This document shows, piece after piece, positions 1,689 to 56,399 of a stretch of DNA of 62,984 bases (positions are counted from its first letter, which is position 1; every line of letters begins with the position of its first letter). Origin of the DNA: an uncultured bacterium (lineage in GTDB: Bacteria > Patescibacteriota > Minisyncoccia > Moranbacterales > GWC2-37-73). The position numbers and the translations under genes are program-made. The DNA lies in assembly GCA_903861715.1 (NCBI GenBank), contig CAIOVI010000052.1, positions 1 through 62,984 of the forward strand, read 5' to 3'. The notes beneath the pieces are model-generated. The model worked only from the letters and a program-made list of their open reading frames with translations, made no database searches and was not told the DNA's origin.

Positions 1689-2948
1689 CTACCTTTCCAA
1701 AATCTCCGCCACCTCCCTTCCGCATTTTTCCCAGGAAAATCGTTGCACATTTTCAAGACCTTTTTCAATAAGGTCTTTTTTGAAAGATTGATTTGAAATT
1801 ATTTCATGAATAGCTTCAGCGATTTCTGTGGGACTTTGGGGATTGACCAAGAGCGCGGAAAATTCAGGAAGGTTCAACCTTCGGTGCTCCGAAGGTTTAG
1901 CCTTCGGGCACGTGATTTCTGGTATGGAAGAATTGTTCGAGGCTACAACTGGGCAACCCACACTTTGGGCTTCCAAAATTGGAATGCCAAAACCCTCATA
2001 CTGCGTCGGAAAAACAAAAACTTCCGCCTTTTTCAAAAGCTCCCATTTCTCCTCCTCAGAAACAAATCCCAACGAAATAATTTGGTTATTGTATCTTGTT
2101 TCTTGTATCTTGTTTTGGATTTTCTCAAATCCGAAACCGGGTTTTCCTGCCAAAACTAATTTATGTTCAAGTTGGTATTTTTCTTTCAGAATTTCAAAAG
2201 CCTTGATAATATTTTCAACATTTTTTCGCTCTTCAATGCGACCGAGGAATAACAAGAAAGGCGTGGAGCACAAATCATGGAACATGGAACATTCTTCGTC
2301 ATCGCGAGAATTTTTGTAATCGAAAATTCGTGGCGATCCAGCTTTCAATAGCGCCCTGGATTGCTTCGCTTGATTACAAGCTCGCAAAGACAGGGATTCG
2401 CATTCTGTATCCTGTTTAAATGTTTTGATGTTTAAATGATTAGATGATTCGTATCCTTCATACACCACCTCGATTTTCTCTTCTGTAACTTTGTATAATT
2501 TCATCAAATCTTTCTTAGTATTCTCTGAAACTGAAATTATCCTGCTTGCCCATTGGCAAGATTTTCTGATTGAGACTCGCATGTAAATTCTTTCCCAAAG
2601 AGAATAAGCCTGGGGGCAAAATTCATATTCCAAACCATGAATCGTGACAACGGTTTTCTTTGGGTGTATTAGTGGCACTGTGTGAGCAGGAATGAACAAC
2701 GCCTCGATTGGATGAAAAAGCATTTCCAGTGAAAGCCCGCCTTGGGTCCAAAAAAATGGCCAGTTAATAACCTTAATTTTCCAATTTGCAGGAATTTCAA
2801 AATCAACGGTTTGATTTTTTCTGAGATACAAGCAAACCTCAAAACAACTCAGCTGATCCCTGAGATTTTTGATAACTTGATATGCATATTCCTCAATTCC
2901 CGTCCGTTTTTCCAAAAACGCCCGAGAACCGTCGATACCAATCCGCAT
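1689..2948 (-). CDS. Glycosyltransferase family 1 (GT4-like) carrying several repeat-derived inserts
   Basis: N-terminus MRIGIDGSRAFLEKRTGIEEY. C-terminal GT1 core FLLFLGRIEERKN...FVFPTQYEGFGIPILEA. Inserts are described in the findings. Confidence 0.85.
   Translation of the reverse strand: MRIGIDGSRAFLEKRTGIEEYAYQVIKNLRDQLSCFEVCLYLRKNQTVDFEIPANWKIKVINWPFFWTQGGLSLEMLFHPIEALFIPAHTVPLIHPKKTVVTIHGLEYEFCPQAYSLWERIYMRVSIRKSCQWASRIISVSENTKKDLMKLYKVTEEKIEVVYEGYESSNHLNIKTFKQDTECESLSLRACNQAKQSRALLKAGSPRIFDYKNSRDDEECSMFHDLCSTPFLLFLGRIEERKNVENIIKAFEILKEKYQLEHKLVLAGKPGFGFEKIQNKIQETRYNNQIISLGFVSEEEKWELLKKAEVFVFPTQYEGFGIPILEAQSVGCPVVASNNSSIPEITCPKAKPSEHRRLNLPEFSALLVNPQSPTEIAEAIHEIISNQSFKKDLIEKGLENVQRFSWEKCGREVAEILER
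2298..2391 (+). repeat. 94-bp palindromic element, copy 1 (inside the glycosyltransferase CDS)
   Basis: gtcatcgcgag...cgtggcgatccag...ctggattgcttcg...ctcgcaaagac. The nested inverted repeats gcgatccag/ctggattgc can be read directly. Confidence 0.85.
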
Positions 2949-3022
2949 AACATGGAGCGTGAAACTCGTAGCGTGAAACGAAACAAATTCACGTTTTGCG
3001 TTATGCGTTACGAGTTACGCGA

Positions 3023-4030
3023 TTACTTGGCTAACATAATGGTGCGTTTGTAAACTTCCAGATTATCCAACGCAATTCCAATCCCTTTGATGACACAAAA
3101 AAGTGGATCATCTGCGACGTAACAAGGCACGCCAATTGTTTTGGTGATAAGTTGATCCAAATTTCGCAGCAGCGCTCCACCCCCGGAAAGAATCATGCCT
3201 TTGTCCATAATGTCCGCGGCCAATTCCGGTGGAGTTTCTTGGAAAACTTTTTTGATGGCGTTAATCACTTCGCGCAATTCATCTTGCAGCGCTTCCGTGA
3301 TTTCATTGGAAGAAATTTTGATTGTCTTTGGCAGCCCGCCCATCAAATCGCGGCCTCTGATTTCCATATGCTCTTCTTTGACTTGTCCAATGGCACTGCC
3401 AATTTCTTTTTTGATGTCTTCAGCCGTGCGGTCACCAATAGCCAGGCCATATTTTCTTTTGATGTAGTCTGAGATGGCTTGATCAAAACGATTGCCACCC
3501 ACGCGGGCGCTGTGCGCTGCCACAATGCCGCCCAAAGAAATCACTGCAATTTCCGAAGTTCCACCGCCGATATTGATGATCATATTGCCCTGGGCGTTGT
3601 GAATTGGGATGCCAGCGCCGATAGCAGCCAGCAGGGGTTCTTTGACCACATACGCTGATTTGGCCCCAGCCTTGACCGCTGCATCAATCACCGCGCGTCG
3701 CTCCGTGGAAGTCACACCCGCCGGAATGGAAATCATAATCTCAGGACGCACAATTCTGATTTTGCCCATCACTTTGTTGATGAAATATCTGAGCATCGCT
3801 TCCGTCACGCGATAATCTGCAATCACACCATCTTTCATGGGACGAGACGCAATAATATTGTCTGGAGTTCTGCCAAGCATTTCCCTGGCTTGATTGCCCA
3901 CCGCCAAAACCACATTTTCCGTCGGCGAAACAGCCACCACCGATGGCTCATTAATCACAATGCCTTTACCTGGGACAAAAACCAGGGTGTTAGCCGTGCC
4001 CAAATCAATTCCGATTTTTCGTATAAACAT
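3023..4030 (-). CDS. mreB: Rod shape-determining protein MreB
   Basis: IGIDLGTANTLVFVPGKGIVINEPSVVAV and the actin-fold motifs NIGGGTSEIAVISLGG. Confidence 0.95.
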   Translation of the reverse strand: MFIRKIGIDLGTANTLVFVPGKGIVINEPSVVAVSPTENVVLAVGNQAREMLGRTPDNIIASRPMKDGVIADYRVTEAMLRYFINKVMGKIRIVRPEIMISIPAGVTSTERRAVIDAAVKAGAKSAYVVKEPLLAAIGAGIPIHNAQGNMIINIGGGTSEIAVISLGGIVAAHSARVGGNRFDQAISDYIKRKYGLAIGDRTAEDIKKEIGSAIGQVKEEHMEIRGRDLMGGLPKTIKISSNEITEALQDELREVINAIKKVFQETPPELAADIMDKGMILSGGGALLRNLDQLITKTIGVPCYVADDPLFCVIKGIGIALDNLEVYKRTIMLAK

Positions 4031-5479: not shown

Positions 5480-5516
5480 ATAATTTTACTAGTTACTAAT
5501 TACTAGTTACTGTTCA

Positions 5517-6824
5517 CTATTTACTCTTCTTCTCAATCCCTGCTCCCAACCTCTGCAATCTTTCAACCAGATTTTCATAGCCTCTTTCAATGTGATAAAC
5601 ATCCCTCAAGACTGATTTTCCTTTGGCAGCCAACATTGCCACCAAAATGATAGCCCCCGGACGCAGGGCTGGCGGGCTGGTCATTTCAACTCCGGTCAAT
5701 TTTCTGGGTCCTTCAATCAAAACTCGATGTGGGTCCATCAGTTTCACTTTAGCGCCGAGCTTGTTCAGTTCCGTGAAATAAATTGCCCGATTTTCATAGA
5801 CCCAATCATGAATCAAGGTTTCGCCTTTGGCCACAATGGCCACCGGCACAAAAAATGGCAAGTTATCAATGTTGATGCCAGCGGAAGACGGCAAGGGATG
5901 AATTTTTTCTTCCAAGGCCACGAGCTTGGATGAAAAAGTTTTCAAGTCAACCAAATTTGTTTTTCCATTGCGAGCCAGATACTGCTTGGTGATTTCATAT
6001 TTGAAACCCATTTTTTCCAATTTCAAAAGTTCCAGTTGCAAAAAATCAATCGGACAGCGCTTGATCAAAAGCTCACTGCCACTGCTGGCGGCAAGGGAAA
6101 GAAAAAACATTGCCTCAATCGGATCTTCACTGATTTCATATGCCACCTCCTTGTTGATGCTGTCCACGCCTTCAATTTCCAAATTGCTCGTGCCAACGCC
6201 TTTGATTTTGACACCCAATTTTTCCAGAAAAAAACAAAGATCCTGAACCATGTAGTTCGAAGAAGCCAAATGAATTTCGGTTTTGCCTTTGGTTTGAGCC
6301 GCAGCTAGCAGCAAATTTTCCGTCACCGTGTCGCCAGTTTCATAAAGCACGATATTTTTGCCAGAAAGTAGTTTTCCAACACTGACCGCAAAACCGCCAG
6401 CTTGCACTTTGATTTTCACACCAAGATTTTCCAAAGCAAACAAATGCGGTTTGATGGTGCGACTGCCAAGTCGACATCCGCCAGCTTGCGGAATCACATA
6501 GCTTTTCAGCTGTCCAGCCAAGGCCCCAATCAACATAATGATTGAACGAGTTCTTTCAGCAGCTGCTCGATTGATTTTCTCAACGGCTATTTTCTTGGGC
6601 GGAATAATGGTCAGGTCGCGACCATTTTTTTCAAATTTCACGCCAATGCTTTCCATCACCTCAATCAACCGATTCACTTCTTCAATTTGAGGCACATTTT
6701 TCAAAACCGTTTTGCCTTTGTTAATCAAAGAAGCCATCAGCAAAGCCACAGCTGCGTTTTTTGAACTGTTTACAATAGCCTCACCCCTGAGTTTTTTCCC
6801 GCCTTGAATTTCAAAATATTCCAT
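5517..6824 (-). CDS. murA: UDP-N-acetylglucosamine 1-carboxyvinyltransferase
   Basis: MEYFEIQGGKKLRGEAIVNSSKNAAVALLMASL. The start is taken at the ATG at 6824, whereas the ORF-track ORF extends to 6854. Confidence 0.95.
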   Translation of the reverse strand: MEYFEIQGGKKLRGEAIVNSSKNAAVALLMASLINKGKTVLKNVPQIEEVNRLIEVMESIGVKFEKNGRDLTIIPPKKIAVEKINRAAAERTRSIIMLIGALAGQLKSYVIPQAGGCRLGSRTIKPHLFALENLGVKIKVQAGGFAVSVGKLLSGKNIVLYETGDTVTENLLLAAAQTKGKTEIHLASSNYMVQDLCFFLEKLGVKIKGVGTSNLEIEGVDSINKEVAYEISEDPIEAMFFLSLAASSGSELLIKRCPIDFLQLELLKLEKMGFKYEITKQYLARNGKTNLVDLKTFSSKLVALEEKIHPLPSSAGINIDNLPFFVPVAIVAKGETLIHDWVYENRAIYFTELNKLGAKVKLMDPHRVLIEGPRKLTGVEMTSPPALRPGAIILVAMLAAKGKSVLRDVYHIERGYENLVERLQRLGAGIEKKSK

Positions 6825-7174: not shown

Positions 7175-7283
7175 AAAAAAATAAAACGTGACACATCTTG
7201 TCGACCGTCAACTTCTGTCACAAAAATTTTCAAAAATAAAACGCGACACATCTCTGCGACCGCAGACTTCTGTCACAAAAAAA
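7175..7283. repeat. Tandem pair (~56 bp) of the 'gacagaagtctgcg/cgcagacttctgtc' hairpin family
   Basis: aaaataaaacg[t/c]gacacatct...cttctgtcacaaaaa occurs twice. A perfect version is at 40193-40226. Confidence 0.75.
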
Positions 7284-10332: not shown

Positions 10333-10426
10333 AGATCATTAGTAACTAGCAATCAGTAATTAGTAACTAAAAAAGGCAGAGCTTCATTTCTCTGATTACT
10401 AGTTACTAATTACTGATTACTAAAAT

Positions 10427-12385: not shown

Positions 12386-12454
12386 GTCATCGCGATCCAC
12401 TCATGACCAAGTTTGGCTCTGGATTGCTTCGGACGATTACATCCTCGCAAAGAC
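12386..12454 (+). repeat. 94-bp palindromic element, truncated copy 4
   Basis: gtcatcgcgatcc...ctggattgcttcggacgattacatcctcgcaaagac. About 25 internal bases are missing. Confidence 0.75.
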
Positions 12455-12589
12455 GAATCTTTGTCTGAATTTGTTTGGTTATTGTATCTTGCCTGCCTGT
12501 CCGGCCTGCCTGTCCGGTAGGCAGGTAGGCAGGCAGGTCTCTTGTATCTTTTGCTGTGTCTATGTGTTCCATGTTCCATGCTTCATAAC

Positions 12590-15405: not shown

Positions 15406-16245
15406 CTAGTAATTTTTCAATGCTCGCTTGACTGGTCCAAAAGATTTGCGGTGAATTGGGCAAGGTCCGTGCTCAAGCAAAGCCTGCATATGAACCTTTG
15501 TGCCATAACCCATGTGTTTTTCCAGTCCATATTGCGGATACAAAAGCGCAAACTCTTTCATCATCCGGTCCCGCGTCACTTTAGCCACAATTGAAGCAGC
15601 TGAAATTGATTTGACCAATTTGTCACCCCCAATCACTGCGTATTGCTCCATTGAAAGATTTGGAATTGTTTTGTTCCCATCAACTAGAATTATATAATGT
15701 GGAACATGGAGCATGGAGCATGAAGCATCACTTATAGTATTTTCGTCATCGCGAGTATTTCTGTACTCAGAAATGCGTGGCGATCCAGAACTGAGCATCG
15801 TCCTGGATTGCTTCGAGCGATTACACTCTCGCAAAGACAATTCATTTTTTGCAATTTCTATTTTATGTTCCATGTTTTCTGCTTCATGTTCCATGTTTCG
15901 GTTGAGTTCCGAAACCGCTTTTTTCATTGCCAAAAAACTGGCTTCCAAAATGTTGATGCGGTCAATTGTTTCATGGTCGCAAAGTCCCAGGCCAAGATAA
16001 AAATGCTCACCAATGAAATCAAAAATTTCTTCCCGTTGTTTTTCGGAAAGTTTTTTGGAATCTCTGATCAGATCAAATTGCTTTTGCAAATTTTCCGGAA
16101 TTTCAAAATTCGGATCTTTGCACATCGCCGCACACGCCACCACCGGTCCGCAAAGCGGCCCACGACCAACCTCGTCAGTGCCAATGACATGCGTGAAGCC
16201 CTGACTGGCAAAATCTTTTTCCAAAATAAAAGTTGAAGTTTCCAT
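15406..16245 (-). CDS. rnhB: Ribonuclease HII with a ~66-aa repeat-derived insert
   Basis: GTDEVGRGPLCGPVVACA...INILEASFLAMKKAV...ILVDGN...SIVAKVTRD. It is ~279 aa, against my recollection of ~200 aa for RNase HII. Confidence 0.9.
   Translation of the reverse strand: METSTFILEKDFASQGFTHVIGTDEVGRGPLCGPVVACAAMCKDPNFEIPENLQKQFDLIRDSKKLSEKQREEIFDFIGEHFYLGLGLCDHETIDRINILEASFLAMKKAVSELNRNMEHEAENMEHKIEIAKNELSLRECNRSKQSRTMLSSGSPRISEYRNTRDDENTISDASCSMLHVPHYIILVDGNKTIPNLSMEQYAVIGGDKLVKSISAASIVAKVTRDRMMKEFALLYPQYGLEKHMGYGTKVHMQALLEHGPCPIHRKSFGPVKRALKNY
15745..15838 (+). repeat. 94-bp palindromic element, copy 2 (inside the rnhB CDS)
   Basis: gtcatcgcgagtatttctgtactcagaaatgcgtggcgatccag...ctggattgcttcgagcgattacactctcgcaaagac. 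It is flanked by inverted ggaacatgga/tccatgttcc words. Confidence 0.85.
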
Positions 16246-19420: not shown

Positions 19421-19834
19421 GTCATCCTATTGTTCAACTTAAAAACCACAAACCCAAAAGGGCTCTCATCATTATCATTTGATGTGGAGCCCTTTAACCT
19501 TTTTATAGGGCAAAATGCCAGAAGATAATTTTTAAATTCCCTCTTTTCCAAAACTATGCTACAATCAAATTACTAAAATATCTTGCAAAACCCAATGGCT
19601 GAGTCCCTGGGGGATGAAGATACTAAAACCATGAAACCAATTGATTCTATCATTATTACTGTGCGTATTTTATAGCCCGCTATTTATAGTGTGGTTTTTT
19701 AATTTTCAATTTTAAATTTAAAATTTTTAAACAATTCTCAAATATCAAATTTTAAAATTTTTAATTTCAGCCAAGGGCTGATCCGCCTAGGGCGGACATT
19801 TCAAATTTCAAATTAAAAATTTCAAATTAATTTT

Positions 19835-24989: not shown

Positions 24990-25088
24990 GCAGGAAAAGT
25001 TAATTTTCCGCCCTATTTTGTTTGAGGCTTTTTATTTTTATAAACCCCACTAAAATACTAATCTTATACGAATGTACCAACTTGCATT

Positions 25089-25192
25089 TTCTTCCTCCTT
25101 TAGAAAAGGAGGATTGAGGTGGATTTGAAAGATTGACTTAAATAAAGAAAATTTTTCGAATCCCTCCCGACCTCCCTTTTCCAAAGGGAGGA
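25089..25192 (-). repeat. ~105-bp double-hairpin element, copy a
   Basis: cctcctttagaaaaggagg...cctcccttttccaaagggagg. It is related to 29782-29886, 38375-38480 and 38764-38872. Confidence 0.8.
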
Positions 25193-25229
25193 GATGAATC
25201 AATTTGTAGATTCGTAGGTCATCAAAATT

Positions 25230-27022: not shown

Positions 27023-27116
27023 GTCTTTGCGAGGATGTAATCATCCGAAGCAATCCAGAGCAATGCCAAGCCCTGGATCGCCACAGATTTTCGAGTACAA
27101 AAATCTTCGCGATGAC
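27023..27116 (-). repeat. 94-bp palindromic element, copy 3 (intergenic)
   Basis: gtctttgcgaggatgtaatcatccgaagcaatccag...ctggatcgccac...cttcgcgatgac. Confidence 0.85.
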
Positions 27117-27154: not shown

Positions 27155-28648
27155 ATGCTCCATATTCCCAAAACCTACTACGTCAAGACTTTCGGTTGCC
27201 AAATGAATGTTAGCGACAGCGAAAGAATTGCCACCTTTTTGGAAGCGCAAGGTTTTTTAGAGTGCGGAGAAATTAAGGATGCTAACTTGGTCATTTTCAA
27301 TACCTGTGGCATCAAACAAACTGCCGAGAATCGAGCCTATAGCCTGATTAATAATTTACGAAAAAAAGAGTTAACAGCCTCTGGTTCACAGTCAACAGCA
27401 ATAGTTTTAACTGGATGCTTGGCCAATCGTTCAGATGTGCAAAAAAGAATGAAGACAAAAGTTGATTTATTTTGCGAAATCAAAAACTTCCCCGAAGCTG
27501 TAGCAAGTATTTTGTATAATGTATCAGGTATAAATTCAAAGATACATACTACCCCATACAAAATACCTTATACAAAAAATCTATACAATAAAGAAGATTT
27601 AGATTATTTGAGTATCCAACCTAAACACCAAAACTCTTTCGAAGCTTACGTTCCCATCATGACTGGTTGCAATAATTTTTGCGCCTATTGCGTGGTGCCA
27701 AACGCCCGTGGCCGTGAAGTTTCACGCCCAGCTGATGAGATTATTACTGAAGTGAAAGACCTTGTTGCCAGAGGCTACAAAAACATCATTTTGCTTGGTC
27801 AAAATGTAAATTCCTATCAAAGTCCAATTTTAATAGCTTCTTCTCCTTCTCAAGGAGAAGATGTCCGGTACTCCGGACAGATGAGGTTGAGCGCTGGAAC
27901 AGACGAGGGTGCAGGGTGCGACTTTCCAACCCTTCTCAAAAAAATAAATTCCATTCCTGGCAAATTTTGGATTCAATTTGTCTCCTCTCACCCAAAAGAT
28001 ATGAGCGATGAGCTGATTGAAGCAATGACCAAATGCCAGAAAGTTTGTGAAAATATCCATTTGCCTGTTCAAGCTGGCGACGACGAAATCCTCAGACGCA
28101 TGAACCGTCGCTACGCCCAGAAACACTATCTGACTCTCATCAAAAAAATAAACCTTGCTTTCAAGAAAAACAAACCTGAAAAACTTTTTTCAATTTCATC
28201 AGACATCATCGTTGGTTTTCCCGGCGAAACTCGCAAACAATTCTTGCAATCCGCATCCTTGATGGAAAAATCAAAATTTGACATGGTTTTCTTTGGACAA
28301 TTCTCACCCCGACCAGGAACCGCCGCTTGGAAGATGAAAGACAATGTTTCTCAAAAAGAAAAAGCCCGTCGCGAAAAATATCTCAATGAAATTCTCAAGA
28401 AAACCGCATTTGAAAACAATCAAAAATATCTTGGCAAAATCGTAGAAGTATTGATTGAAAAGAAAGCTCCGAAGGCTAAACCTTCGGACGAAGGTTTAGC
28501 CTTCGGAAACCTAGCTTATTTCGGCAAAACCAGAACTCTAAAAAATGTGAAAGTTACAACAAGCAAAAAAGATTTGCTCGGAAAAGTTGTGAAAGTTGCA
28601 ATAACAAAAGCCAATGTTTGGAATTTAGAAGGTAGTTTAGTGAATTAA
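27155..28648 (+). CDS. miaB: tRNA-i6A37 methylthiotransferase (MiaB-type radical SAM) with inserts
   Basis: YYVKTFGCQMNVSDSE (UPF0004 domain), radical-SAM CNNFCAYC, and a C-terminal TRAM domain. Confidence 0.9.
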   Translation: MLHIPKTYYVKTFGCQMNVSDSERIATFLEAQGFLECGEIKDANLVIFNTCGIKQTAENRAYSLINNLRKKELTASGSQSTAIVLTGCLANRSDVQKRMKTKVDLFCEIKNFPEAVASILYNVSGINSKIHTTPYKIPYTKNLYNKEDLDYLSIQPKHQNSFEAYVPIMTGCNNFCAYCVVPNARGREVSRPADEIITEVKDLVARGYKNIILLGQNVNSYQSPILIASSPSQGEDVRYSGQMRLSAGTDEGAGCDFPTLLKKINSIPGKFWIQFVSSHPKDMSDELIEAMTKCQKVCENIHLPVQAGDDEILRRMNRRYAQKHYLTLIKKINLAFKKNKPEKLFSISSDIIVGFPGETRKQFLQSASLMEKSKFDMVFFGQFSPRPGTAAWKMKDNVSQKEKARREKYLNEILKKTAFENNQKYLGKIVEVLIEKKAPKAKPSDEGLAFGNLAYFGKTRTLKNVKVTTSKKDLLGKVVKVAITKANVWNLEGSLVN

Positions 28649-28818: not shown

Positions 28819-29757
28819 ATGCCCACCAAAAAGCCAAAAATAATAGTCGTCATGGGCCCCACAGCCTCTGGAAAATCCGGAGTGGCGATTCAGCTTGCCA
28901 AAAAATTCGGCGGCGAAATCATCTCCGCCGACAGCAGACAAATTTACAGAGACATGAATATTGGCACAGGGAAAGTTCGTGGAGCGTGGAGCGTGGAGCG
29001 TGGAGCCTTTATTTCAGAAGACATCCCCCATCATTTGATTGATGTGGCCAAACCGCAAGAAGATTTCAACGTTTCGCATTTCAAAAAATTGGCACAGGAA
29101 AAAATCAAAGAAATTTTGCAGCGCCAAAAAGTTCCCATCATTTGTGGTGGCACCGCTTTTTGGATTGACACCTTGACCAAAAACTCAAACATTCCAGAAG
29201 TTGCCCCAGATGAAAAATTGCGAGCCAGACTTGCCAAGAAAAGTGTCGCGCAATTATTTTCTCAACTCAAAAAACTCGACTCACGGCGAGCCAAAGATAT
29301 TGATAAACAAAACAAAGTCCGCCTGATCCGCGCCATTGAAATCTGCAAAGTGTTGGGGAAAGTACCTGTTCGCGAAACACAAAACTTGGAGCGTGGAGCG
29401 TGGAATACGAAATACGAATTTTTACAAATTGGAATTGAGGTTCCGAGGGAAATTTTGAATGAAAAAATCCAAAAACGCCTTGATGAGCGTTTCAAAGAAG
29501 GAATGACACAGGAAGTCTCAAAGCTGCATAAAAAGGGAGTTTCCTGGAAGTGGATGGAGCGGATTGGTCTGGAATATCGCTGGATTTCACTTTTCTTACG
29601 TCAAAAAATTTCCGAAACCGAAATGCACGAAAAACTCTACTACGCCATCATTCACTATGCCAAACGCCAAATGACCTGGCTACAAAGAAATCCAAACATC
29701 ATTTGGTGCAGTGATTACAAAGCAATAAAAAAAGAAGTTGAGAAGTTTCTTAAATAG
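28819..29757 (+). CDS. miaA: tRNA dimethylallyltransferase
   Basis: VMGPTASGKSGVAIQLAKKFGGEIISADSRQIYRDMNIGTGK. Confidence 0.9.
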   Translation: MPTKKPKIIVVMGPTASGKSGVAIQLAKKFGGEIISADSRQIYRDMNIGTGKVRGAWSVERGAFISEDIPHHLIDVAKPQEDFNVSHFKKLAQEKIKEILQRQKVPIICGGTAFWIDTLTKNSNIPEVAPDEKLRARLAKKSVAQLFSQLKKLDSRRAKDIDKQNKVRLIRAIEICKVLGKVPVRETQNLERGAWNTKYEFLQIGIEVPREILNEKIQKRLDERFKEGMTQEVSKLHKKGVSWKWMERIGLEYRWISLFLRQKISETEMHEKLYYAIIHYAKRQMTWLQRNPNIIWCSDYKAIKKEVEKFLK

Positions 29758-29781: not shown

Positions 29782-29886
29782 CTCCTCCCTTTGGAAAAGG
29801 GAGGTTAGGAGGGATTCGAAAACTTTCCTCAAAATTATAATTTTTCAAATCCACCTCAGTCCTCCTTTTCCAAAGGAGGAAGAAAA
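29782..29886 (+). repeat. ~105-bp double-hairpin element, copy b
   Basis: ctcctccctttggaaaagggagg...cctccttttccaaaggaggaag. Confidence 0.8.
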
Positions 29887-29920
29887 TGCATAATTCGAAA
29901 AATAAAATACAAAGTTTTTA

Positions 29921-36274: not shown

Positions 36275-36343
36275 AGATATTTTCGTAGATTCGTATTAAT
36301 TCGCCTGCCTGCCGTCGAGGCAGGTAGTTTCGTATCGGTAAGG

Positions 36344-38318: not shown

Positions 38319-38374
38319 TTTTGTCTGCCGATGCGAAACTACGAAACTGACACGAATCTACGAACTCGCATTAC

Positions 38375-38480
38375 TCCTCTCTTTAGAAAAGAGAGGTTGG
38401 GAGAGATTTGAAAAACTTTCTTTATCTTAGTTAGTCTTTCAAATTCCCCTCAATCCCCTTTTTCTAAAAGGGGAAGAAAA
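38375..38480 (+). repeat. ~105-bp double-hairpin element, copy c
   Basis: ctcctctctttagaaaagagagg...cccctttttctaaaaggggaag. Confidence 0.8.
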
Positions 38481-38522
38481 TACTTTCGTAGATTCGAATG
38501 CTATTCGTAGTTTCGAATCGCT

Positions 38523-38711
38523 TTATTTAATGATATACGTCTTTAAAATATAACTGAAAATCCAGTCTAGTCCGCCCAGGAAAAGGGCCACTGCGAGGCT
38601 GACTGCCACCACCAAAATTGTGTAGTTGATGGTCTGCTTTTTGGTTGGCCAATTCACTTTCATCAATTCTGCTTTGGCTTCTTGAAAAAATTGTACAGTT
38701 TTCTTTATCAT
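38523..38711 (-). CDS. secE: Preprotein translocase subunit SecE
   Basis: 62 aa with KVNWPTKKQTINYTILVVAVSLAVALFLGGLD. It sits upstream of nusG, as is typical. Confidence 0.9.
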   Translation of the reverse strand: MIKKTVQFFQEAKAELMKVNWPTKKQTINYTILVVAVSLAVALFLGGLDWIFSYILKTYIIK

Positions 38712-38763
38712 AATGTAACCGATGCGAAACTACAAACTTTATACGAATCTACGAACTTGTACC

Positions 38764-38872
38764 CCTCCTCCCTTTAGCAAAGGGAGGTTGGGAGGGATTT
38801 GGAAAACTTTCTTTATTTAAGTTAATCTTTCAAATCCACCTCAATCCTCCTTTTCTAAAGGAGGAAGAAAAT
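38764..38872 (+). repeat. ~105-bp double-hairpin element, copy d
   Basis: cctcctccctttagcaaagggagg...cctccttttctaaaggaggaag. Confidence 0.8.
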
Positions 38873-39014
38873 ACACTTGTAAATTCAAATACCATTCGTT
38901 GTTTCGAATCGTCATTGAATTTTGAGGTTTTTTAAAAAGCCCTTGGGGCTTTCTTTATATATCTAATCTACACTATCTCGGGTTTTTTGTCAACAACCAG
39001 TCAACAACCAGCTA

Positions 39015-39175: not shown

Positions 39176-39248
39176 GGGCCGGTAGCTCACCTGGTAGAGC
39201 GCCTCATTTGCACTGAGGAGGTAGCGGGTTCAAGTCCTGTCCGGTCCA
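39176..39248 (+). tRNA. tRNA-Ala (anticodon UGC)
   Basis: A manual cloverleaf gives acceptor GGGCCGG/CCGGTCC with G3:U70, anticodon loop TTTGCAC and T-arm GGGTTCAAGTCCT. Confidence 0.9.
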
Positions 39249-39307
39249 CCGCGTAAAATTCGCTTCGCTCATCATGCGGCACAGCCATTGATGAAAAAGA
39301 ATTATAC

Positions 39308-39381
39308 GGGCGTGTAGCTCAGTTGGTTAGAGCGCGTCACTGATAATGACGAGGTCCCCAGTTCGAATCTAGGCACGCCCA
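39308..39381 (+). tRNA. tRNA-Ile (anticodon GAU)
   Basis: Acceptor GGGCGTG/CACGCCC, anticodon stem CGTCA/TGACG and loop CTGATAA. There is one C:A mismatch in the T stem. Confidence 0.85.
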
Positions 39382-39476
39382 CCCCAAAAACCAAAAGATC
39401 AAAAATCCTCTCATGGATTTTTTGTTTTTTAAAAATTTTAGAAAAGAAAGAACTAACTTTAAACCAGGGGTATGCA

Positions 39477-40176: not shown

Positions 40177-40192
40177 ACTTACCCAAAAAAGT

Positions 40193-40226
40193 GTGACAGA
40201 AGTCTGCGACCGCAGACTTCTGTCAC
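40193..40226. repeat. Perfect 16-bp-arm hairpin of the 'gacagaagtctgcg' family
   Basis: gtgacagaagtctgcg-ac-cgcagacttctgtcac. Degenerate copies lie at 7175-7283. Confidence 0.85.
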
Positions 40227-40240
40227 GTTTTAAAAAAAGA

Positions 40241-41932: not shown

Positions 41933-42751
41933 TCAACCCTTTGAGAAGTAAACCGCCACCACAATTGCAGCCAACGCTAGGCGATACCAAAAAAATGGAG
42001 CGCAGCCAACTTTTTGGATGAAGCGCAACATATATTTAATAGACAAGTAGCCAGTAATGGCCGAAGCCAGAATGCCAAAGAAAATTGGCGTGTCAATTCC
42101 AGCTTTGAGCAAATGCGGGACTTTCACAATCGCTGCCCCAAAAATAATCGGGGTCGAAAGCAAAAAAGAAAAACGGGCTGCCTGCTCGCGAGAAAGACCC
42201 AAAAAAAGTCCAGTTGTCATCGTTGCGCCAGAGCGTGACACCCCAGGAATAATGGCCACGGCCTGCGAAAGACCAATCCAAAATGCGTCCAGTTTTGTCA
42301 GCTTGCCAAGCTCTTTGCGATGAGCGGCATATTTGTCCACCAAAAATAAAATCAACCCAACCACGCTCAAGGTAAACGCAATCAAAAGCGGATTGCGAAA
42401 AGCCGCTTCCGCCTTGCTGTCAAAAAGCATGCCAAAAATTGCGCCCGGAACAGAAGCGATGACCAAGAGCCAAAGCAACTGCGAAGGATACTTCTCCGCA
42501 GAATTTGAAATTTGAAATTTGAAATTTGAAATTTTTTGAAGCGCAAGCTGAAAAATAGTGAGCCAATCTCGCCAAAAAAATCCAACCACTGCAATCAAAG
42601 TTCCCACATGCAAAGCCACGTCAAAAGAAAGCCCCGGATCACTCCAACCAAAAAACCACGGCGCCAAAATCAAATGCGCCGTCGACGAAATAGGCAAAAA
42701 TTCCCCCAAACCCTGCAGGATCCCCAAAACGATTGCTTGAAAAATGTTCAT
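41933..42751 (-). CDS. uppP: Undecaprenyl-diphosphate phosphatase
   Basis: MNIFQAIVLGILQGLGEFLPISSTAHLIL. It contains a heptamer-repeat insert. Confidence 0.9.
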   Translation of the reverse strand: MNIFQAIVLGILQGLGEFLPISSTAHLILAPWFFGWSDPGLSFDVALHVGTLIAVVGFFWRDWLTIFQLALQKISNFKFQISNSAEKYPSQLLWLLVIASVPGAIFGMLFDSKAEAAFRNPLLIAFTLSVVGLILFLVDKYAAHRKELGKLTKLDAFWIGLSQAVAIIPGVSRSGATMTTGLFLGLSREQAARFSFLLSTPIIFGAAIVKVPHLLKAGIDTPIFFGILASAITGYLSIKYMLRFIQKVGCAPFFWYRLALAAIVVAVYFSKG

Positions 42752-42855
42752 AATCCCTACAAATTTACAAATTAATTAAAGCCGATGCGAAACTACCTGC
42801 CTCGACGGCAGGCAGGCGAAATTAATACGAATCTACGAACATTTAAAGTTTTTTT

Positions 42856-42955
42856 GTCTTTGCGAGGATGTAATCATCCGAAGCAATCCAGAGCGCTGCA
42901 TATGCCTAGTCCTGGATCGCCACGCATTTCCGATTACAGAAATACTCGCGATGAC
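42856..42955 (-). repeat. 94-bp palindromic element family, copy 5 (100 bp, intergenic)
   Basis: gtctttgcgaggatgtaatcatccgaagcaatccag...ctggatcgccac...ctcgcgatgac. Confidence 0.85.
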
Positions 42956-42984: not shown

Positions 42985-43695
42985 CTATTTCCTTCCCACC
43001 AGCAAAATATTCCTCCCACCCACAATCTCACATTTTTCAATTTCAAAGCCAGCCTCCTCAAAAAGTTTTTGCAGTTCCCTTTTCGTGAAAGCGTGATGAA
43101 AACGTTGAAATTTTTTGCCCTGATTATCTGTGAAAGAAATTTGGCAGTCGTTCCAGTCCAACTGACTTTTGCCTTGCAACTTTTCAAGCCAATTTTTCAA
43201 AATGTTTTTAAAATATCTTCGCTGAAAAAGATACCAGACCGTGACCACAATGTGTCCATCTTCTTTCGTTTTATTGTAAAGTTCCCTTGCCGCCTCCTGG
43301 CGATATTGCTGAGAAGGAAAATGATGGAAGACCGCAATGCTGAAAATAGCGTTGAAAAAATTATCTTCGAGTTCCTCGGAGCTAAGCTCCGAAACAGTGC
43401 CGGTCTTAAGTTTGAAAAATTTAACATTTTCACTTTCATATTTTTGCTTGGCAAAATCAATCAGTCCTTGAGAGACATCCACACCGCAGTATTGAACCTT
43501 TTTTTCTCCCAGCAATTCCAGCAAGCGTCCATTGCCACAGCCAAAATCCAAAACATTGTCATTTTCTCTGCAATAATCACTGATAAATTCCAAACCTCGC
43601 CAAAAATGTTTTCTGGTTTGAGAAAATTTTTGGCTAATCAAATCATAGCCAACCTCAGTTTCCTGCAAAATTTTTTCCGCTATTTCTTTTTTCAT
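42985..43695 (-). CDS. Class I SAM-dependent methyltransferase
   Basis: Motif I VLDFGCGNGRL. Confidence 0.8.
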   Translation of the reverse strand: MKKEIAEKILQETEVGYDLISQKFSQTRKHFWRGLEFISDYCRENDNVLDFGCGNGRLLELLGEKKVQYCGVDVSQGLIDFAKQKYESENVKFFKLKTGTVSELSSEELEDNFFNAIFSIAVFHHFPSQQYRQEAARELYNKTKEDGHIVVTVWYLFQRRYFKNILKNWLEKLQGKSQLDWNDCQISFTDNQGKKFQRFHHAFTKRELQKLFEEAGFEIEKCEIVGGRNILLVGRK

Positions 43696-47120: not shown

Positions 47121-47210
47121 AAATTTAAAATTAAAAAATTATACGTTTATTATACCATAAACAAAAAAAAGTCCTTACAAGGCCAATGACCCTCAATTAA
47201 CCCCATCAAA

Positions 47211-47248
47211 GTGTTACAAATAAATGCATATGCATTTATTTGTAACAC
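47211..47248. repeat. 38-bp perfect palindrome, copy 1
   Basis: gtgttacaaataaatgcat|atgcatttatttgtaacac. Confidence 0.95.
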
Positions 47249-47353
47249 TCACAAAATAAAATTTGCACTTGATTTTCACTGGCCAAAAATAATCGGCAGC
47301 TTCAGTGACTATTTTGATCATTCGTCCTGTAACACATATTTTCGACACTCAAA

Positions 47354-47992
47354 TCAAAGCTTGAATTTGCGTTTAAACTTTTCTTCATGCATCACCCTTT
47401 CCGCAACTAGGATATCAATAAACTTTTCAACATAGTAAACCTCGGCCAAAAAAAGAATTTCATCCTCACAGTCATAAGGATAAACCCAGACACTCTTCTG
47501 CATCTGAACAAAGCCTAACTCTTTTATCTTTTCTCGCAGAGCATTGCGAGCATTATTGTAAATTGCTGGCTTAGTTGGAATATCAAACATCAAAATTCGC
47601 CACTTGCCATCCCATTTTTTGGGTTTTTTTATCACAAGCGTTTCAAAACAAAACTCACAAACTCTTTTCTTGCCCTTATTTGTAAGCTCCACTCGGGTGA
47701 CGCCATTTTTTTCATTAACTATTTCAATAAGCTTTCGATGTTTAAGTGTCCTAATCGCTTGTTGCAGATTTTTTTTGGCATATTTTCGCTTCCCACCTTG
47801 ATCGCCCATTACCGCAACTAATCCTGGTGCAAGCACACCAGCAAAAACTATCCCACCCAAAGCCAATGTCATCAACACAAATTTCGCAGCTGTTGCTTTT
47901 TTGGAATCAGAACACAAAAAATCCTCCACATAATCACCGAGCTTCTTGTGAGTTTTTTTTGTTTCAATTTTCCTGCGCCTTTTTGTTTCCAT
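47354..47992 (-). CDS. PaaX-like/Cas2-fold regulator-like protein with an N-terminal TM segment
   Basis: WDGKWRILMFDIPTKPAIYNNARNALREKIKELGFVQMQKSVWVYP matches the PaaX-type W-x-W-(l)-v-F-d/s-IP...R..LR..L..lGF...q.svWv.P block. Confidence 0.55.
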   Translation of the reverse strand: METKRRRKIETKKTHKKLGDYVEDFLCSDSKKATAAKFVLMTLALGGIVFAGVLAPGLVAVMGDQGGKRKYAKKNLQQAIRTLKHRKLIEIVNEKNGVTRVELTNKGKKRVCEFCFETLVIKKPKKWDGKWRILMFDIPTKPAIYNNARNALREKIKELGFVQMQKSVWVYPYDCEDEILFLAEVYYVEKFIDILVAERVMHEEKFKRKFKL

Positions 47993-48098
47993 TGTTTTTA
48001 TTTTATTGTTTCTGTCTTATTCTCTCTATCTCATTCTCTCAAATTACTTCAAAGTAATATCCCCCCCCAATAATTGTAATTATAATCCCCGCTCCAAA

Positions 48099-48136
48099 GT
48101 GTGTCAAAAAAATGCATATGCCTAAATTTGTAACAC
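48099..48136. repeat. 38-bp palindrome family, degenerate copy 2
   Basis: gtgtgtcaaaaaaatgcatatgcctaaatttgtaacac. Confidence 0.8.
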
Positions 48137-48277
48137 TTAGTATGATATGTATAAAATTATCTACTCAATAAAACTATTCACTCAATATACCTAATCAATA
48201 TAACCAATTCAAAAATTATATAGATTCAATCTTACAACATCTCAAAAATACCCTCATCACTTCTTCTCTTTTTTAAG

Positions 48278-48315
48278 GTGTTACAAATAAATGCATATGC
48301 CTAACTTTGTAACAC
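48278..48315. repeat. 38-bp palindrome family, imperfect copy 3
   Basis: gtgttacaaataaatgcatatgcctaactttgtaacac. Confidence 0.9.
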
Positions 48316-48403
48316 TAGCCATGAAAATAACCAGTTAATAACATTTCTGCGTCCCAAATTTTACGCCAAACCAAAAAACCCCACAATCTTTATCCCTTTC
48401 AAA

Positions 48404-48441
48404 GTGTTACAATAAAATGCATATGCATTTTATTGTAACAC
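48404..48441. repeat. 38-bp palindrome family, perfect variant copy 4
   Basis: gtgttacaataaaatgcat|atgcattttattgtaacac. The palindrome extends to 48401-48444. Confidence 0.95.
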
Positions 48442-48568
48442 TTTGAAATAATTGGTTAAGTTTTTTATATTTTGCAATGCAAATAATAGCAAAAATTGAC
48501 TGATCTAAAGATTTTAAAAATTTTTCCCAAAAAAAGAGCTGGTCAGGCTCCTTGGGACTTCTGCATAT

Positions 48569-49309
48569 TTACCTACCAGCAAGTTGCCACAACATTTCGA
48601 ATTTTTTTCTTTCCATTTTTACAATATCCTCACTTTCAATCAAAACGGAAATCAATTCTTTTGTAGAAGAAACAAAGGCAACCTTGTTTTGATAAATAAA
48701 CTGAGTTGAGTCATAATTAAATTCTTTCGGCAAAAATCTCACTTCTCGCAAATATTCGCCGTCATAGCCCTCCTTAAACTTCTCAGCCCAACTGTTTTCA
48801 AACAACAACGCTCGCAGTTTAATTTTTCTTTTGATGCGAGTGGGGATATAATACTGCTCATCATATTTATTGCCAATGATTTCATAAATAGCCGAAGGGT
48901 CACCTAGCCACAAAAGTTCACTTGCATGTTTTTCAAGTGTGTCCTCGCAAACAGAAAAATAGCCCTCTTCCCCTTCAAAATATTTTACTTGGGGAGAGTG
49001 TGAATCTTTTTTCGAAACAGCTTTGAGCTGGGGAATAATCAAACTTATCTCTTTCGTTTTTTCTTCCATCTGGCTCAAAATCTTTTCAGGATTTTCTGCG
49101 CTCAAATGAATGCCACTTTTTGTTTTATACTTTCCCAGAAGACCTTTTGCCATCAACGATTTAGCAACCAAATAAACTGAAGTTCTTTTGACCCCAGCAT
49201 GCTTGGCGATTTTTGTCACCAAACTCGGACCCAGTTGAAGAGCGGACAGATATACCGCTATTTCATCATCACTCAGGCCTATTTTTTTGAGAGCATCTTG
49301 TGAATCCAT
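48569..49309 (-). CDS. TrmB-family transcriptional regulator
   Basis: N-terminal wHTH LKKIGLSDDEIAVYLSALQLGPSLVTKIAKHAGVKRTSVYLVAKSLMAKGL. Confidence 0.7.
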   Translation of the reverse strand: MDSQDALKKIGLSDDEIAVYLSALQLGPSLVTKIAKHAGVKRTSVYLVAKSLMAKGLLGKYKTKSGIHLSAENPEKILSQMEEKTKEISLIIPQLKAVSKKDSHSPQVKYFEGEEGYFSVCEDTLEKHASELLWLGDPSAIYEIIGNKYDEQYYIPTRIKRKIKLRALLFENSWAEKFKEGYDGEYLREVRFLPKEFNYDSTQFIYQNKVAFVSSTKELISVLIESEDIVKMERKKFEMLWQLAGR

Positions 49310-49540
49310 AATTGTTGATATTTATGACAACACTATTATTATGCTAACATAGGATGATTAAATTGTCAATATTATAGCTCAAAACAGGCCTTTTAAAGCT
49401 TTTATGATTATTCTAAAATATTAATCTATTGTTTCATTTATAAACATAATCTTTACATCCTCTAATTTTTATACAATAATCAACTGTTTGGATCTTTAAC
49501 AATCGCGGAATCTTCCGCAAAAAACAATGGAGGATAAAAA

Positions 49541-49975
49541 GTGACTAAATTTGACTATTTTTTAACCGGCTTATTAATCCTTATTTTTGGAGGATTTCTT
49601 GGTTTAGAATGGCATATGCTACGATTAATGGATCCGTGGGTATTCCCGACAGTTAATATCTGTTTATTTGTTGCAAGATTAGCATACAATGTCAGATACA
49701 ATATTAATCACATTAATCTCATGGCCTGCAAGCTAAAACTTGATTTCTATTACACTGGCAAACAAGTCTCCCGATTGAGATGGGGCGTGCGTCCATGCGC
49801 CTATAAGCTAACAAAGCTTGGCTGGGAGTTTTGGCCTGCTGGCTGGATTCCCAAATCTCCATATTTGTGGATTGAAATAAGAATAAAAAATATTTCTTTT
49901 TTTCAATACACTCTAGAGGCAAGACTAGGAGAAGATCTTGTAGGATTATGCACCCCACCTGAACCATGGTGGTAA
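49541..49975 (+). CDS. Hypothetical membrane protein (GTG start)
   Basis: RBS ggagg is 8 nt before the GTG. The N-terminus has TM segments and the C-terminal part is W-rich. Confidence 0.5.
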   Translation: MTKFDYFLTGLLILIFGGFLGLEWHMLRLMDPWVFPTVNICLFVARLAYNVRYNINHINLMACKLKLDFYYTGKQVSRLRWGVRPCAYKLTKLGWEFWPAGWIPKSPYLWIEIRIKNISFFQYTLEARLGEDLVGLCTPPEPWW

Positions 49976-50011
49976 AATTTCTTTTTAATTTTAACTTACT
50001 GAGGTGAAAAA

Positions 50012-50269
50012 ATGAAAGAAGAAGCCAAAAAACTGACTGCTCATAGTCTTGGTGTGATTAGCCTGCTCATCACTGCAATCGCTAGTACTCTCATGGTGAG
50101 TAAATTTTGCCCAGATCAAGGGACAGATGGAATGGTTGTTTTGTTAATAAAGGGATTACCGGCCATGTTGGAGGTCGGTACTATCGTTTGGGAATTTCAT
50201 TGGCTAAATAAAAGAGAGGGGCAACTAATGCATAAGCTATTAGTGAATCTCAAGAAGTACGCCAAATAA
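50012..50269 (+). CDS. Hypothetical small membrane protein
   Basis: RBS gaggtg. Two hydrophobic segments are present. A hairpin gctctacacgc...gcgtgcagagc (about 50291-50325) follows. Confidence 0.5.
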   Translation: MKEEAKKLTAHSLGVISLLITAIASTLMVSKFCPDQGTDGMVVLLIKGLPAMLEVGTIVWEFHWLNKREGQLMHKLLVNLKKYAK

Positions 50270-50356
50270 ACTCAACTGCTTTACATAATCTTGAAGCTCT
50301 ACACGCAGATGCGTGCAGAGCTTTATTTTTATATGAATTTCTTAACCTCCTCCCAT

Positions 50357-50394
50357 GTGTTACAAATAAATGCATATGCATTTATTTGTAACAC
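50357..50394. repeat. 38-bp perfect palindrome, copy 5 (identical to copy 1)
   Basis: gtgttacaaataaatgcatatgcatttatttgtaacac. Confidence 0.95.
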
Positions 50395-50438
50395 CCTGTT
50401 TAATGCCAGCACTATGTGCACAATTTTTATGTATAAAA

Positions 50439-56170: not shown

Positions 56171-56399
56171 ATTCCATTAAGATACACACACTAAACCAAC
56201 TGCTAAATCCTAATTTCCCTGCCTACCGACAGGCAGGCAATTTCCAATAAGATTCCAAGTCCTAAATCCTAATTTTTGATATTTTGATTTCAGATTTTAG
56301 ATTTTATTAGTCACTTGCCTACCGGCAGGCAGGTTGGATATTTAGATTTTGGATTTTAATGGTTTGCTTGGTTATTGTATCTTGTATCTTGGTTATTTA

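Follow-up and report, generated by a model that had tools for sequence, protein, structure and literature searches.

An in-frame dimer of CGTC-tagged hairpin units in the RNase HII gene of a Moranbacteria genome and its likeness to the ends of Ssn-type elements

The composite insert of rnhB and its related copies

The 62,984-nucleotide stretch of Moranbacteria DNA analyzed in this study (the window) contains an rnhB gene whose coding sequence carries an in-frame composite insert. The insert, its components and the related copies elsewhere in the window are listed in Table 1. An initial annotation had placed a foreign-looking segment of ~200 bp in rnhB at 15700–15899, and alignment with orthologs and with a known structure delimited a segment of nearly that size. 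The 94-bp core was found exactly where that annotation had put it. Its four further copies in the window were recovered by repeat finding and alignment, and in an exact search zero matches would be expected by chance.

Table 1. Features of the rnhB insert, copies of the core element and examples of heptamer arrays in the window.
Feature	Position	Strand	Remarks
rnhB (RNase HII, PF01351), host gene	15406–16245	-	279-aa ORF
Extra coding segment of rnhB, 192 nt, aa 115–178	15712–15903	-	From ortholog/structure alignment
Outer insert, arm of heptamer repeats (ATGGARC)n	15695–15726	.	From repeat finding
Outer insert, opposite arm (GYTCCAT)n	15860–15897	.	From repeat finding
Core element, 94 nt, head-to-head (tags outside) dimer of two hairpin units	15745–15838	+	Antisense to rnhB
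Left unit, GTC-ATCGC-GA-G[TATTTCTG-TACT-CAGAAATG]C-GTG-GCGAT-CCAG	15745–15788	+	
Variable 14-nt spacer	15789–15802	.	Position is that of the ssn gene in autonomous relatives
Right unit, GTC-TTTGC-GA-G[AGTG-TAAT-CGCT]C-GAA-GCAAT-CCAG	15803–15838	-	Read on the minus strand
Second in-gene copy, interdomain linker of GT4 glycosyltransferase 1689–2948(-)	2298–2391	+	Orientation and frame as in rnhB
72-nt copy, both heads, left distal hairpin deleted	12386–12457	+	Downstream of rnc
Intergenic copy	27023–27116	-	32 nt past the thrS stop
Intergenic copy	42856–42955	-	~30 nt past the stop of methyltransferase 42985–43695(-)
Period-7 arrays, examples	2089–2115, 2998–3026, 5486–5525, 10395–10423		
Period-7 arrays, examples	19798–19830, 28978–29006, 42502–42534, 56272–56306		

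The nearest homologs of this RNase HII were annotated as RNase HII of Candidatus Moranbacteria and ranged from 221 to 306 amino acid residues; 32 of them were aligned. The insert was absent from the Moranbacteria orthologs of 225 residues, in which ELKRN is followed by 12 residues and then by YIILVDGN with nothing extra in between. Moreover, no residue of the RNase HII of E. coli (7uwe_C) was aligned to residues 115–178 of the window protein. The insertion point corresponds to residue 98 of 7uwe_C, between the helix ending in AVAGL and the strand YVLIDGN, so that the insert separates a helix from the catalytic ILVDGN strand. In an AlphaFold2 model built on the alignment, the RNase HII core was predicted with confidence (pLDDT blocks of 80–94), residues 115–150 were modeled as an extension of helix 99–150 and residues 151–178 as disordered. 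The comparison with orthologs and structure thus supports an insertion into a loop or linker rather than ancestral protein sequence.

The identical site was occupied by different sequences in different relatives. A heptamer-armed segment (MEHETWNMEH...PCSMLHAP) was found alone in P0004 and P0008 and together with the core in the window protein and P0002. P0003 possessed half a core plus an N/Q-rich repeat, and other homologs possessed IPNDKLQIPNKFQ-type repeats or CHPELVSGS...IPDQVRNDR-type repeats. The nesting of the core within the outer insert was borne out by the DNA of four such genes; in the relatives P0004/L001 the outer insert was present and the core was absent. Similar to rnhB, the glycosyltransferase gene of the sister strain P0128 had a core surrounded by the outer heptamer-armed insert. 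The inverted ggaacatgga/tccatgttcc words reported to bracket the core were present, and they turned out to be parts of short period-7 arrays that form the two arms. The heptamer-armed palindromic insert is older than the core, and this layered insertion hot spot in RNase HII is new. The insert was kept in frame in lineages whose RNase HII were 78% identical.

Two additional observations concern the rnhB genes of relatives. A second insertion hot spot lies after AAMxK, at alignment columns ~90–130, where six orthologs, including that of L002, carry a canonical CGTC REP dimer that encodes CHPELDSGS...IPDQVRNDK. In a near-identical strain (P0123/P0124, one contig of 16 kb), rnhB was split into ORFs of 182 and 76 residues directly after the insert, with loss of the ILVDGN strand; the gene is a pseudogene or the split is an artifact of assembly.

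Perfect matches to the head consensus GTCWTYGCGA numbered exactly 10, namely the two heads of each of the five elements, and the same scan revealed no solo units in the window. The G+C contents of the elements ranged from 46 to 50%, compared with 40.5% for the window. The copy at 12386, described initially as truncated, was real but not truncated at an end, as it retained both heads; what it had lost was the distal hairpin of its first unit, deleted internally from one GCGA word to another. The insert of the glycosyltransferase (residues 167–229) was found between the Glyco_transf_4 and Glycos_transf_1 domains. The intergenic copies, to which the rnhB copy was nearly identical in DNA, were situated just past stop codons within co-directional gene pairs, and copies were found in both orientations relative to transcription. 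None of the five window copies was flanked by a target-site duplication, as expected for hairpin- and ssDNA-based elements. When the rnc-amidohydrolase and thrS-miaB spacers were aligned to those of two related Moranbacteria loci (L003 and L004), the spacers were too diverged to give exact empty sites, and no closely related empty site that defines the exact insertion boundaries was found.

Folding and reading frame of the units

Each unit has a CGTC/TGTC head and a CCAG tail, between which lie a basal stem, an internal loop and a distal hairpin. The heads of the 10 window units were all tCGTC, tTGTC or cCGTC, and the CCAG tail followed both units. The stem is split into 5 bp, the internal loop and then a distal helix of 5–9 bp, and the terminal loops are 4 nt. 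In the left unit the stem begins with AT; the AAAGAC variant of the right unit has a T.T mismatch as its first pair. All five window copies are head-to-head (HH; tags outside) heterodimers, and the spacers between units varied from 14 to 20 nt across copies.

Base substitutions supported pairing within each unit. Over 728 units drawn from all of the loci retrieved, the basal stem had T:A as its middle pair in 586, C:G in 122 and another combination in 20. In the distal hairpins of six window-type copies, seven pairs changed on both sides, a number reached by 0 of 500 shuffles, and 90% of the cells could pair, compared with 36–50% in slid controls. The mean folding energy of 330 distinct distal segments was -5.0 kcal/mol, compared with -2.0 kcal/mol after shuffling. 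The folding of the element as a whole was strong (z-scores of -2.5 to -6.5). The conserved pairing is within each unit and not between the two arms paired in the initial annotation. Single-sequence folding yielded a four-way junction with inter-arm helices, which was rejected, as the Y:R covariation favors intra-unit hairpins. In the common heterodimers the left unit has C:G and the right unit T:A, so that inter-arm pairing always produces a C.A mismatch and a G.T wobble. Hairpin stability was strand-asymmetric in 337 of 371 units, to which little weight is given because the constant internal loop may be part of its cause.

Both in-gene copies of the window were read on one strand and in one frame (SLR.CN..KQSR...GSPRI..Y.N.RDDE), antisense to the strand on which the form is described. 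The resulting peptides were SLRECNRSKQSR...GSPRISEYRNTRDDE in RNase HII and SLRACNQAKQSR...GSPRIFDYKNSRDDE in the glycosyltransferase. This common sense and frame had been recognized initially together with the open frame of the intergenic copy at 42856; the copy at 27023 was open as well, so that both full-length intergenic copies are open in the KQSR frame. A local ORF-context scan identified two further in-gene copies of the window type, one in a MiaB ortholog (L215) and the other in an ORF of 1007 residues (L085), which we take from its sequence, rather than from a family search, to be UvrA. The four independent in-gene copies therefore use one of six possible readings. When the frames were anchored on the right unit, the KQSR frame was interrupted by a stop in one of nine low-G+C copies and had a GRAVY of -1.05, whereas the other five frames had stops in 4 to 7 of the nine copies and GRAVY values of -0.13 to -0.43. 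This bias needs no explanation beyond selection against disruptive insertions. A query of concatenated six-frame peptides against a protein database retrieved one spurious ORF, the matches being too short for the database.

The miaB gene of the window itself (27155–28648) contains a different in-frame palindromic insert at 27803–27937, whose peptide is SPILIASSPSQGEDVRYSGQMRLSAGTDEGAG and whose DNA includes CTTCTCCTTCTCAAGGAGAAG and GTCCGGTACTCCGGAC. The site of this insert is that of the 94-nt element in the L215 ortholog.

Relation to known repeats and to Ssn-type genes

When the representative genomes of GTDB were scanned for GGATTGCTTCG-N10-14-CTCGCAAAGAC, at least 118 stretches were returned. 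The matches listed included those of Bradyrhizobium, Xanthobacteraceae, Cytophagales, Chloroflexi, Nitrospinales, Deferribacteraceae, Synergistaceae, Saccharibacteria, Paceibacterota and others. A scan of metagenomes with GGCGATCCAG-N8-30-CTGGATTGCTTCG returned at least 120 stretches, and the matches listed were mostly in DNA of 60–70% G+C. Among the matches listed, the unit motif was also frequent in viral contigs (IMG/VR). The common architecture was GTCATYGCGAG-[hairpin]-...GCRATCCAG-spacer-CTGGATTGC...-[hairpin]-CTCGCAAWGAC. Judged by these motif matches, the element family is spread across bacteria, with its motif in many phyla. The initial annotation knew of no equivalent family for this kind of CPR-like genome. 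That holds for CPR, as no description of such elements in CPR was found in the literature searched, but the family extends beyond this genome. A literature search by sequence words found primer coincidences only.

The closest described repeats are among the REPs, which have been sorted into GTAG- and CGTC-tagged superfamilies (Di Nocera, De Gregorio and Rocco, 2013; PMC3733652). CGTC REPs have an unpaired CGTC/TGTC head, a stem nearly always starting with AT, loops of 4–5 nt and a CCA tail. They are mostly HH dimers with the tags outside, often heterodimers; their intergenic copies are near the 3' ends of genes, and some copies are located in frame within genes, those for DNA repair in particular. 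No transposase was found associated with them. The superfamily includes RPE-4 and RPE-6 of Rickettsia conorii and dRS3 of Neisseria, and the survey covered five phyla, CPR not included (PMC3733652). Similar to CGTC REPs, the window units possess the CGTC/TGTC head, the AT start of the stem in the left unit, the CCA tail, 4-nt terminal loops and the HH arrangement, and their copies are found intergenically at 3' ends and in frame within genes, DNA-repair genes included. Different from the continuous stem of 8–9 bp in CGTC REPs, however, the window units have a basal stem of 5 bp (ATYGC/GCRAT), a GA/GWR internal loop and a long, freely covarying distal hairpin.

REPINs, which are linked to RAYTs (Bertels and Rainey, 2011; PMC3116915), share with the window element the inverted doublet of REP hairpins, the non-autonomous state and the lack of target duplication. 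REPINs have a GTAG tag, a Y1 transposase as partner and species-specific sequences, whereas the window family has a CGTC tag, a GIY-YIG partner gene and a head and tail that are constant across phyla. Similar to a classical MITE, the window element has inverted ends, but target-site duplications were absent from all five copies.

RPE-1 of Rickettsia and the QMITEs of Coxiella are palindromes of ~100 nt that are inserted in the reading frame of essential genes in the small genomes of host-dependent bacteria, and both families are restricted to a genus. The window element, compared with them by description only, resembles them in size and in-frame placement. The initial annotation had likened it to RPEs as selfish DNA tolerated inside genes, and the absence of the insert from the 225-residue orthologs, the near-identical intergenic copies, the location in a loop or linker and the presence of the insert in many independent assemblies support this. 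Based on the CGTC head, AT stem, CCA tail and tags-outside dimers, and on the membership of RPE-4 and RPE-6 in the CGTC superfamily, the analogy with RPEs is probably one of homology.

A candidate partner enzyme comes from Neisseria. SsnA, a GIY-YIG protein of 94 residues, binds and cuts NTS, a longer Neisseria repeat with the sequence CGTCATTCCCGCGMAVGCGGGAATCYRG (CGTCAT...ATCYRG), only as ssDNA and on one strand (Chenal et al., 2025; PMC11893778). The cut site is just 5' of the NTS fold, in the head, and SsnA does not bind RNA. Motifs of this kind flank the Ssn genes of different phyla, in a layout like that of an IS; the activity demonstrated for Ssn is cleavage of DNA and not transposition (PMC11893778). 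The CGTCAT head and ATCCAG tail of NTS are identical to those of the window units. In-gene copies are rare in Neisseria (2%), compared with two of five in the window. The published SRM pattern HGTCWYN(0-2)YYVSBRHN(0-5)WNVSBRGN(0-2)RNCYNB had no match in the window. It also missed the canonical-looking CGTC dimer of the sister genome L002, which is TTGTC-ATTCCGGA-CTTGA-TCCGGAAT-CCAG and encodes CHPELDSGS...IPDQVRNDK, suggesting that the pattern is narrow. A very widespread variant of the unit, with a GCGAG stem and a long distal hairpin, escapes this motif, and motif-based surveys therefore undercount the family.

Similar to the published SRM-ssn-SRM arrangement, the window unit type was found elsewhere to flank GIY-YIG genes of ~95 residues as inverted ends. 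All 10 loci examined with Ssn-like GIY-YIG genes (PF01541) had a unit within 400 nt of the gene, most of them on both sides; four of these loci came from those chosen by the element pattern and six were chosen by protein only. In L048, for instance, CGTCTTCGCGAG-[hairpin]-CGTGGCGATCCAG units with outward-facing heads lie on both sides of the GIY-YIG gene, and a protein search with this gene retrieved 1102 homologs of ~95 residues. In the protein-chosen loci an upstream unit with its head outward was present in six of six and an inverted downstream unit in four of six. L363 is the clearest example, comprising a unit, 12 nt, the gene from ATG to TGA, 1 nt and an inverted copy of the same unit. 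No GIY-YIG gene was found in the 63-kb window or in the related Moranbacteria loci L003 and L004, and none of the six ssn loci whose hosts were looked up was CPR-like. GIY-YIG domain proteins in general, not Ssn in particular, are among the genes exchanged by Patescibacteria (2025 study, PMC12455944). Given that the units flank ssn genes in other bacteria, the window copies would be gene-less, MITE-like derivatives. They look like the inverted ends that flank ssn, a short spacer having taken the place of the gene.

Two of the loci showed further features. In Bradyrhizobium sp. DASA03120 (L030; 1331–1548 and 5935–7108), an array of 21 units surrounds an ssn-like gene, and a group II intron (RF02005) adjoins a disrupted unit. 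In L370 (5001–5285), an ssn-like gene with its upstream unit is located beside phage portal, protease and capsid genes.

Origin of the insert and additional repeats in the window

The reading that we favor, with a probability of roughly 0.6, is that the core is non-autonomous, MITE-like selfish DNA made of Ssn-related units that landed in an older insert of rnhB. The core consists of two CGTC-tagged hairpin units, inverted and related to Ssn motifs, that are separated by no more than a short spacer. Elsewhere the same units are the inverted ends of IS-like elements of ~400 bp, whose only gene encodes the Ssn-type GIY-YIG nuclease of ~95 residues. Each unit would fold on its own strand, most plausibly as ssDNA during replication or repair. 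One copy would then have landed inside the heptamer-armed palindromic insert, at a loop-coding hot spot of rnhB. It may have survived there because its length is, with its flanks, a multiple of three, because its position is outside the fold and because it is translated in the one frame that is free of stops and strongly hydrophilic. We infer that the copies were mobilized by Ssn or by another enzyme, and that this took place in this genome.

The CGTC superfamily is already known, and so are members in frame in genes. New in this study are the CPR host, the unit variant and the explicit connection between this variant and elements that carry Ssn. The results join three topics, namely in-frame palindromic inserts of the Rickettsia type, CGTC-tagged REPs, a superfamily previously without a known enzyme partner, and the Ssn single-strand nucleases, and extend all three to an ultra-small CPR bacterium of the Moranbacteria. 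They suggest that selfish DNA of this kind also reshapes proteins in ultra-small bacteria and offer CPR biology a specific origin, at the level of DNA, of some insertions in otherwise conserved proteins that had lacked an explanation. For annotation, they account for many spurious small ORFs with KQSR, SLRG, LDCF or VIAS peptides. A wider proposal is that unit-ssn-unit elements are active, pan-bacterial, hairpin-ended ssDNA transposons driven by a GIY-YIG nuclease of ~95 residues, that their gene-less dimers are a main source of lineage-specific loop insertions in CPR proteins and that hot spots such as the RNase HII loop are re-invaded repeatedly. This proposal is tentative, and we consider it less likely than not.

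Different explanations can be weighed against the same observations. Strong folding, covarying hairpins and intergenic copies just past the stops of co-directional gene pairs, as reported for REPs, would also be expected of a functional structured RNA, such as an mRNA-stabilizing or -processing hairpin or a small RNA, with the coding copies being incidental. However, neither the window nor 18 related loci had an Rfam match to the element at the gathering score, nothing relevant was found up to E = 10 over 15650–15950, and the copies are oriented either way with respect to transcription. Moreover, the primary sequences of head and tail are conserved across phyla and flank a nuclease gene as inverted ends, which fits recognition of DNA by a protein, and the characterized SsnA does not bind RNA. 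An RNA function is thus unlikely.

The architecture of the element, with its inverted imperfect hairpins, conserved 5' tetranucleotide, spacer and lack of target duplication, is equally that of a REPIN-type doublet mobilized by a RAYT or an IS200-like Y1 tyrosine transposase. Its tag is CGTC and not GTAG, however, and Di Nocera et al. (PMC3733652) found CGTC repeats without an associated transposase. The unit-flanked gene was GIY-YIG and not Y1 in 10 of 10 loci, and clustering of the neighboring ORFs of 118 element loci recovered housekeeping genes only and no recurrent or shared transposase. Mobilization by a Y1 enzyme is accordingly very unlikely.

The in-frame retention in lineages whose RNase HII are 78% identical, and the frame bias, are compatible with a protein module that the host selected for a new surface function of RNase HII and the glycosyltransferase. 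Such a module is highly improbable, however, given that identical DNA occurs intergenically, that its hosts (RNase HII, GT4, MiaB and UvrA-like) are unrelated, that the second half of the RNase HII insert is predicted to be disordered and that sister lineages carry quite different repeat families at the site, or nothing. Finally, although the metagenomic DNA is rich in repeats, an assembly chimera, which the initial annotation had named as a possible refutation, is excluded by the occurrence of the exact 279-residue protein on 69 independently assembled contigs from three archives (NCBI, Logan and ENA) and of the glycosyltransferase with its insert on 48 contigs as the exact protein and on 41 as a variant of 420 residues.

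The window contains additional repeats. Dozens of short period-7 tandem arrays with two to six copies and many different units were found, mostly at gene boundaries (examples in Table 1). In miaA, which encodes tRNA isopentenyltransferase (28819–29757), GTGGAGC heptamer arrays at 28975–29006 and 29387–29404 are in frame (KVRGAWSVERGAF and LERGAWNTKYEF). A near-perfect palindrome of 38 nt, GTGTTACAAATAAATGCATATGCATTTATTTGTAACAC, occurs five times within 3.2 kb at 47197–50395. A palindromic family of CTCCTCCCTTTGGAAAAGGGAGG-type hairpins is present at 25083–25216, 29782–29890 and 38328–38911 and includes a direct repeat of 193 nt at 38328 and 38719. Of two small palindromic families, GTGACAGAAGTCTGCGACCGCAGACTTCTGTCAC is found at 7177–7281 and 40182–40232, and TTCGCCTGCCTGCCGTCGAGGCAGGTAGTTTCG is found at 36300–36338 and 42782–42820 and abuts the element copies at 12386 and 42856. 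The segment at 60174–60391, which by its coordinates is within the ORF at 58808–60436, comprises 2.3 repeats of a 96-nt unit with 99% identity. No rRNA match was found within the window; tRNA-Ala(TGC) and tRNA-Ile(GAT) genes adjoin each other at 39176–39383, as in an rRNA spacer.
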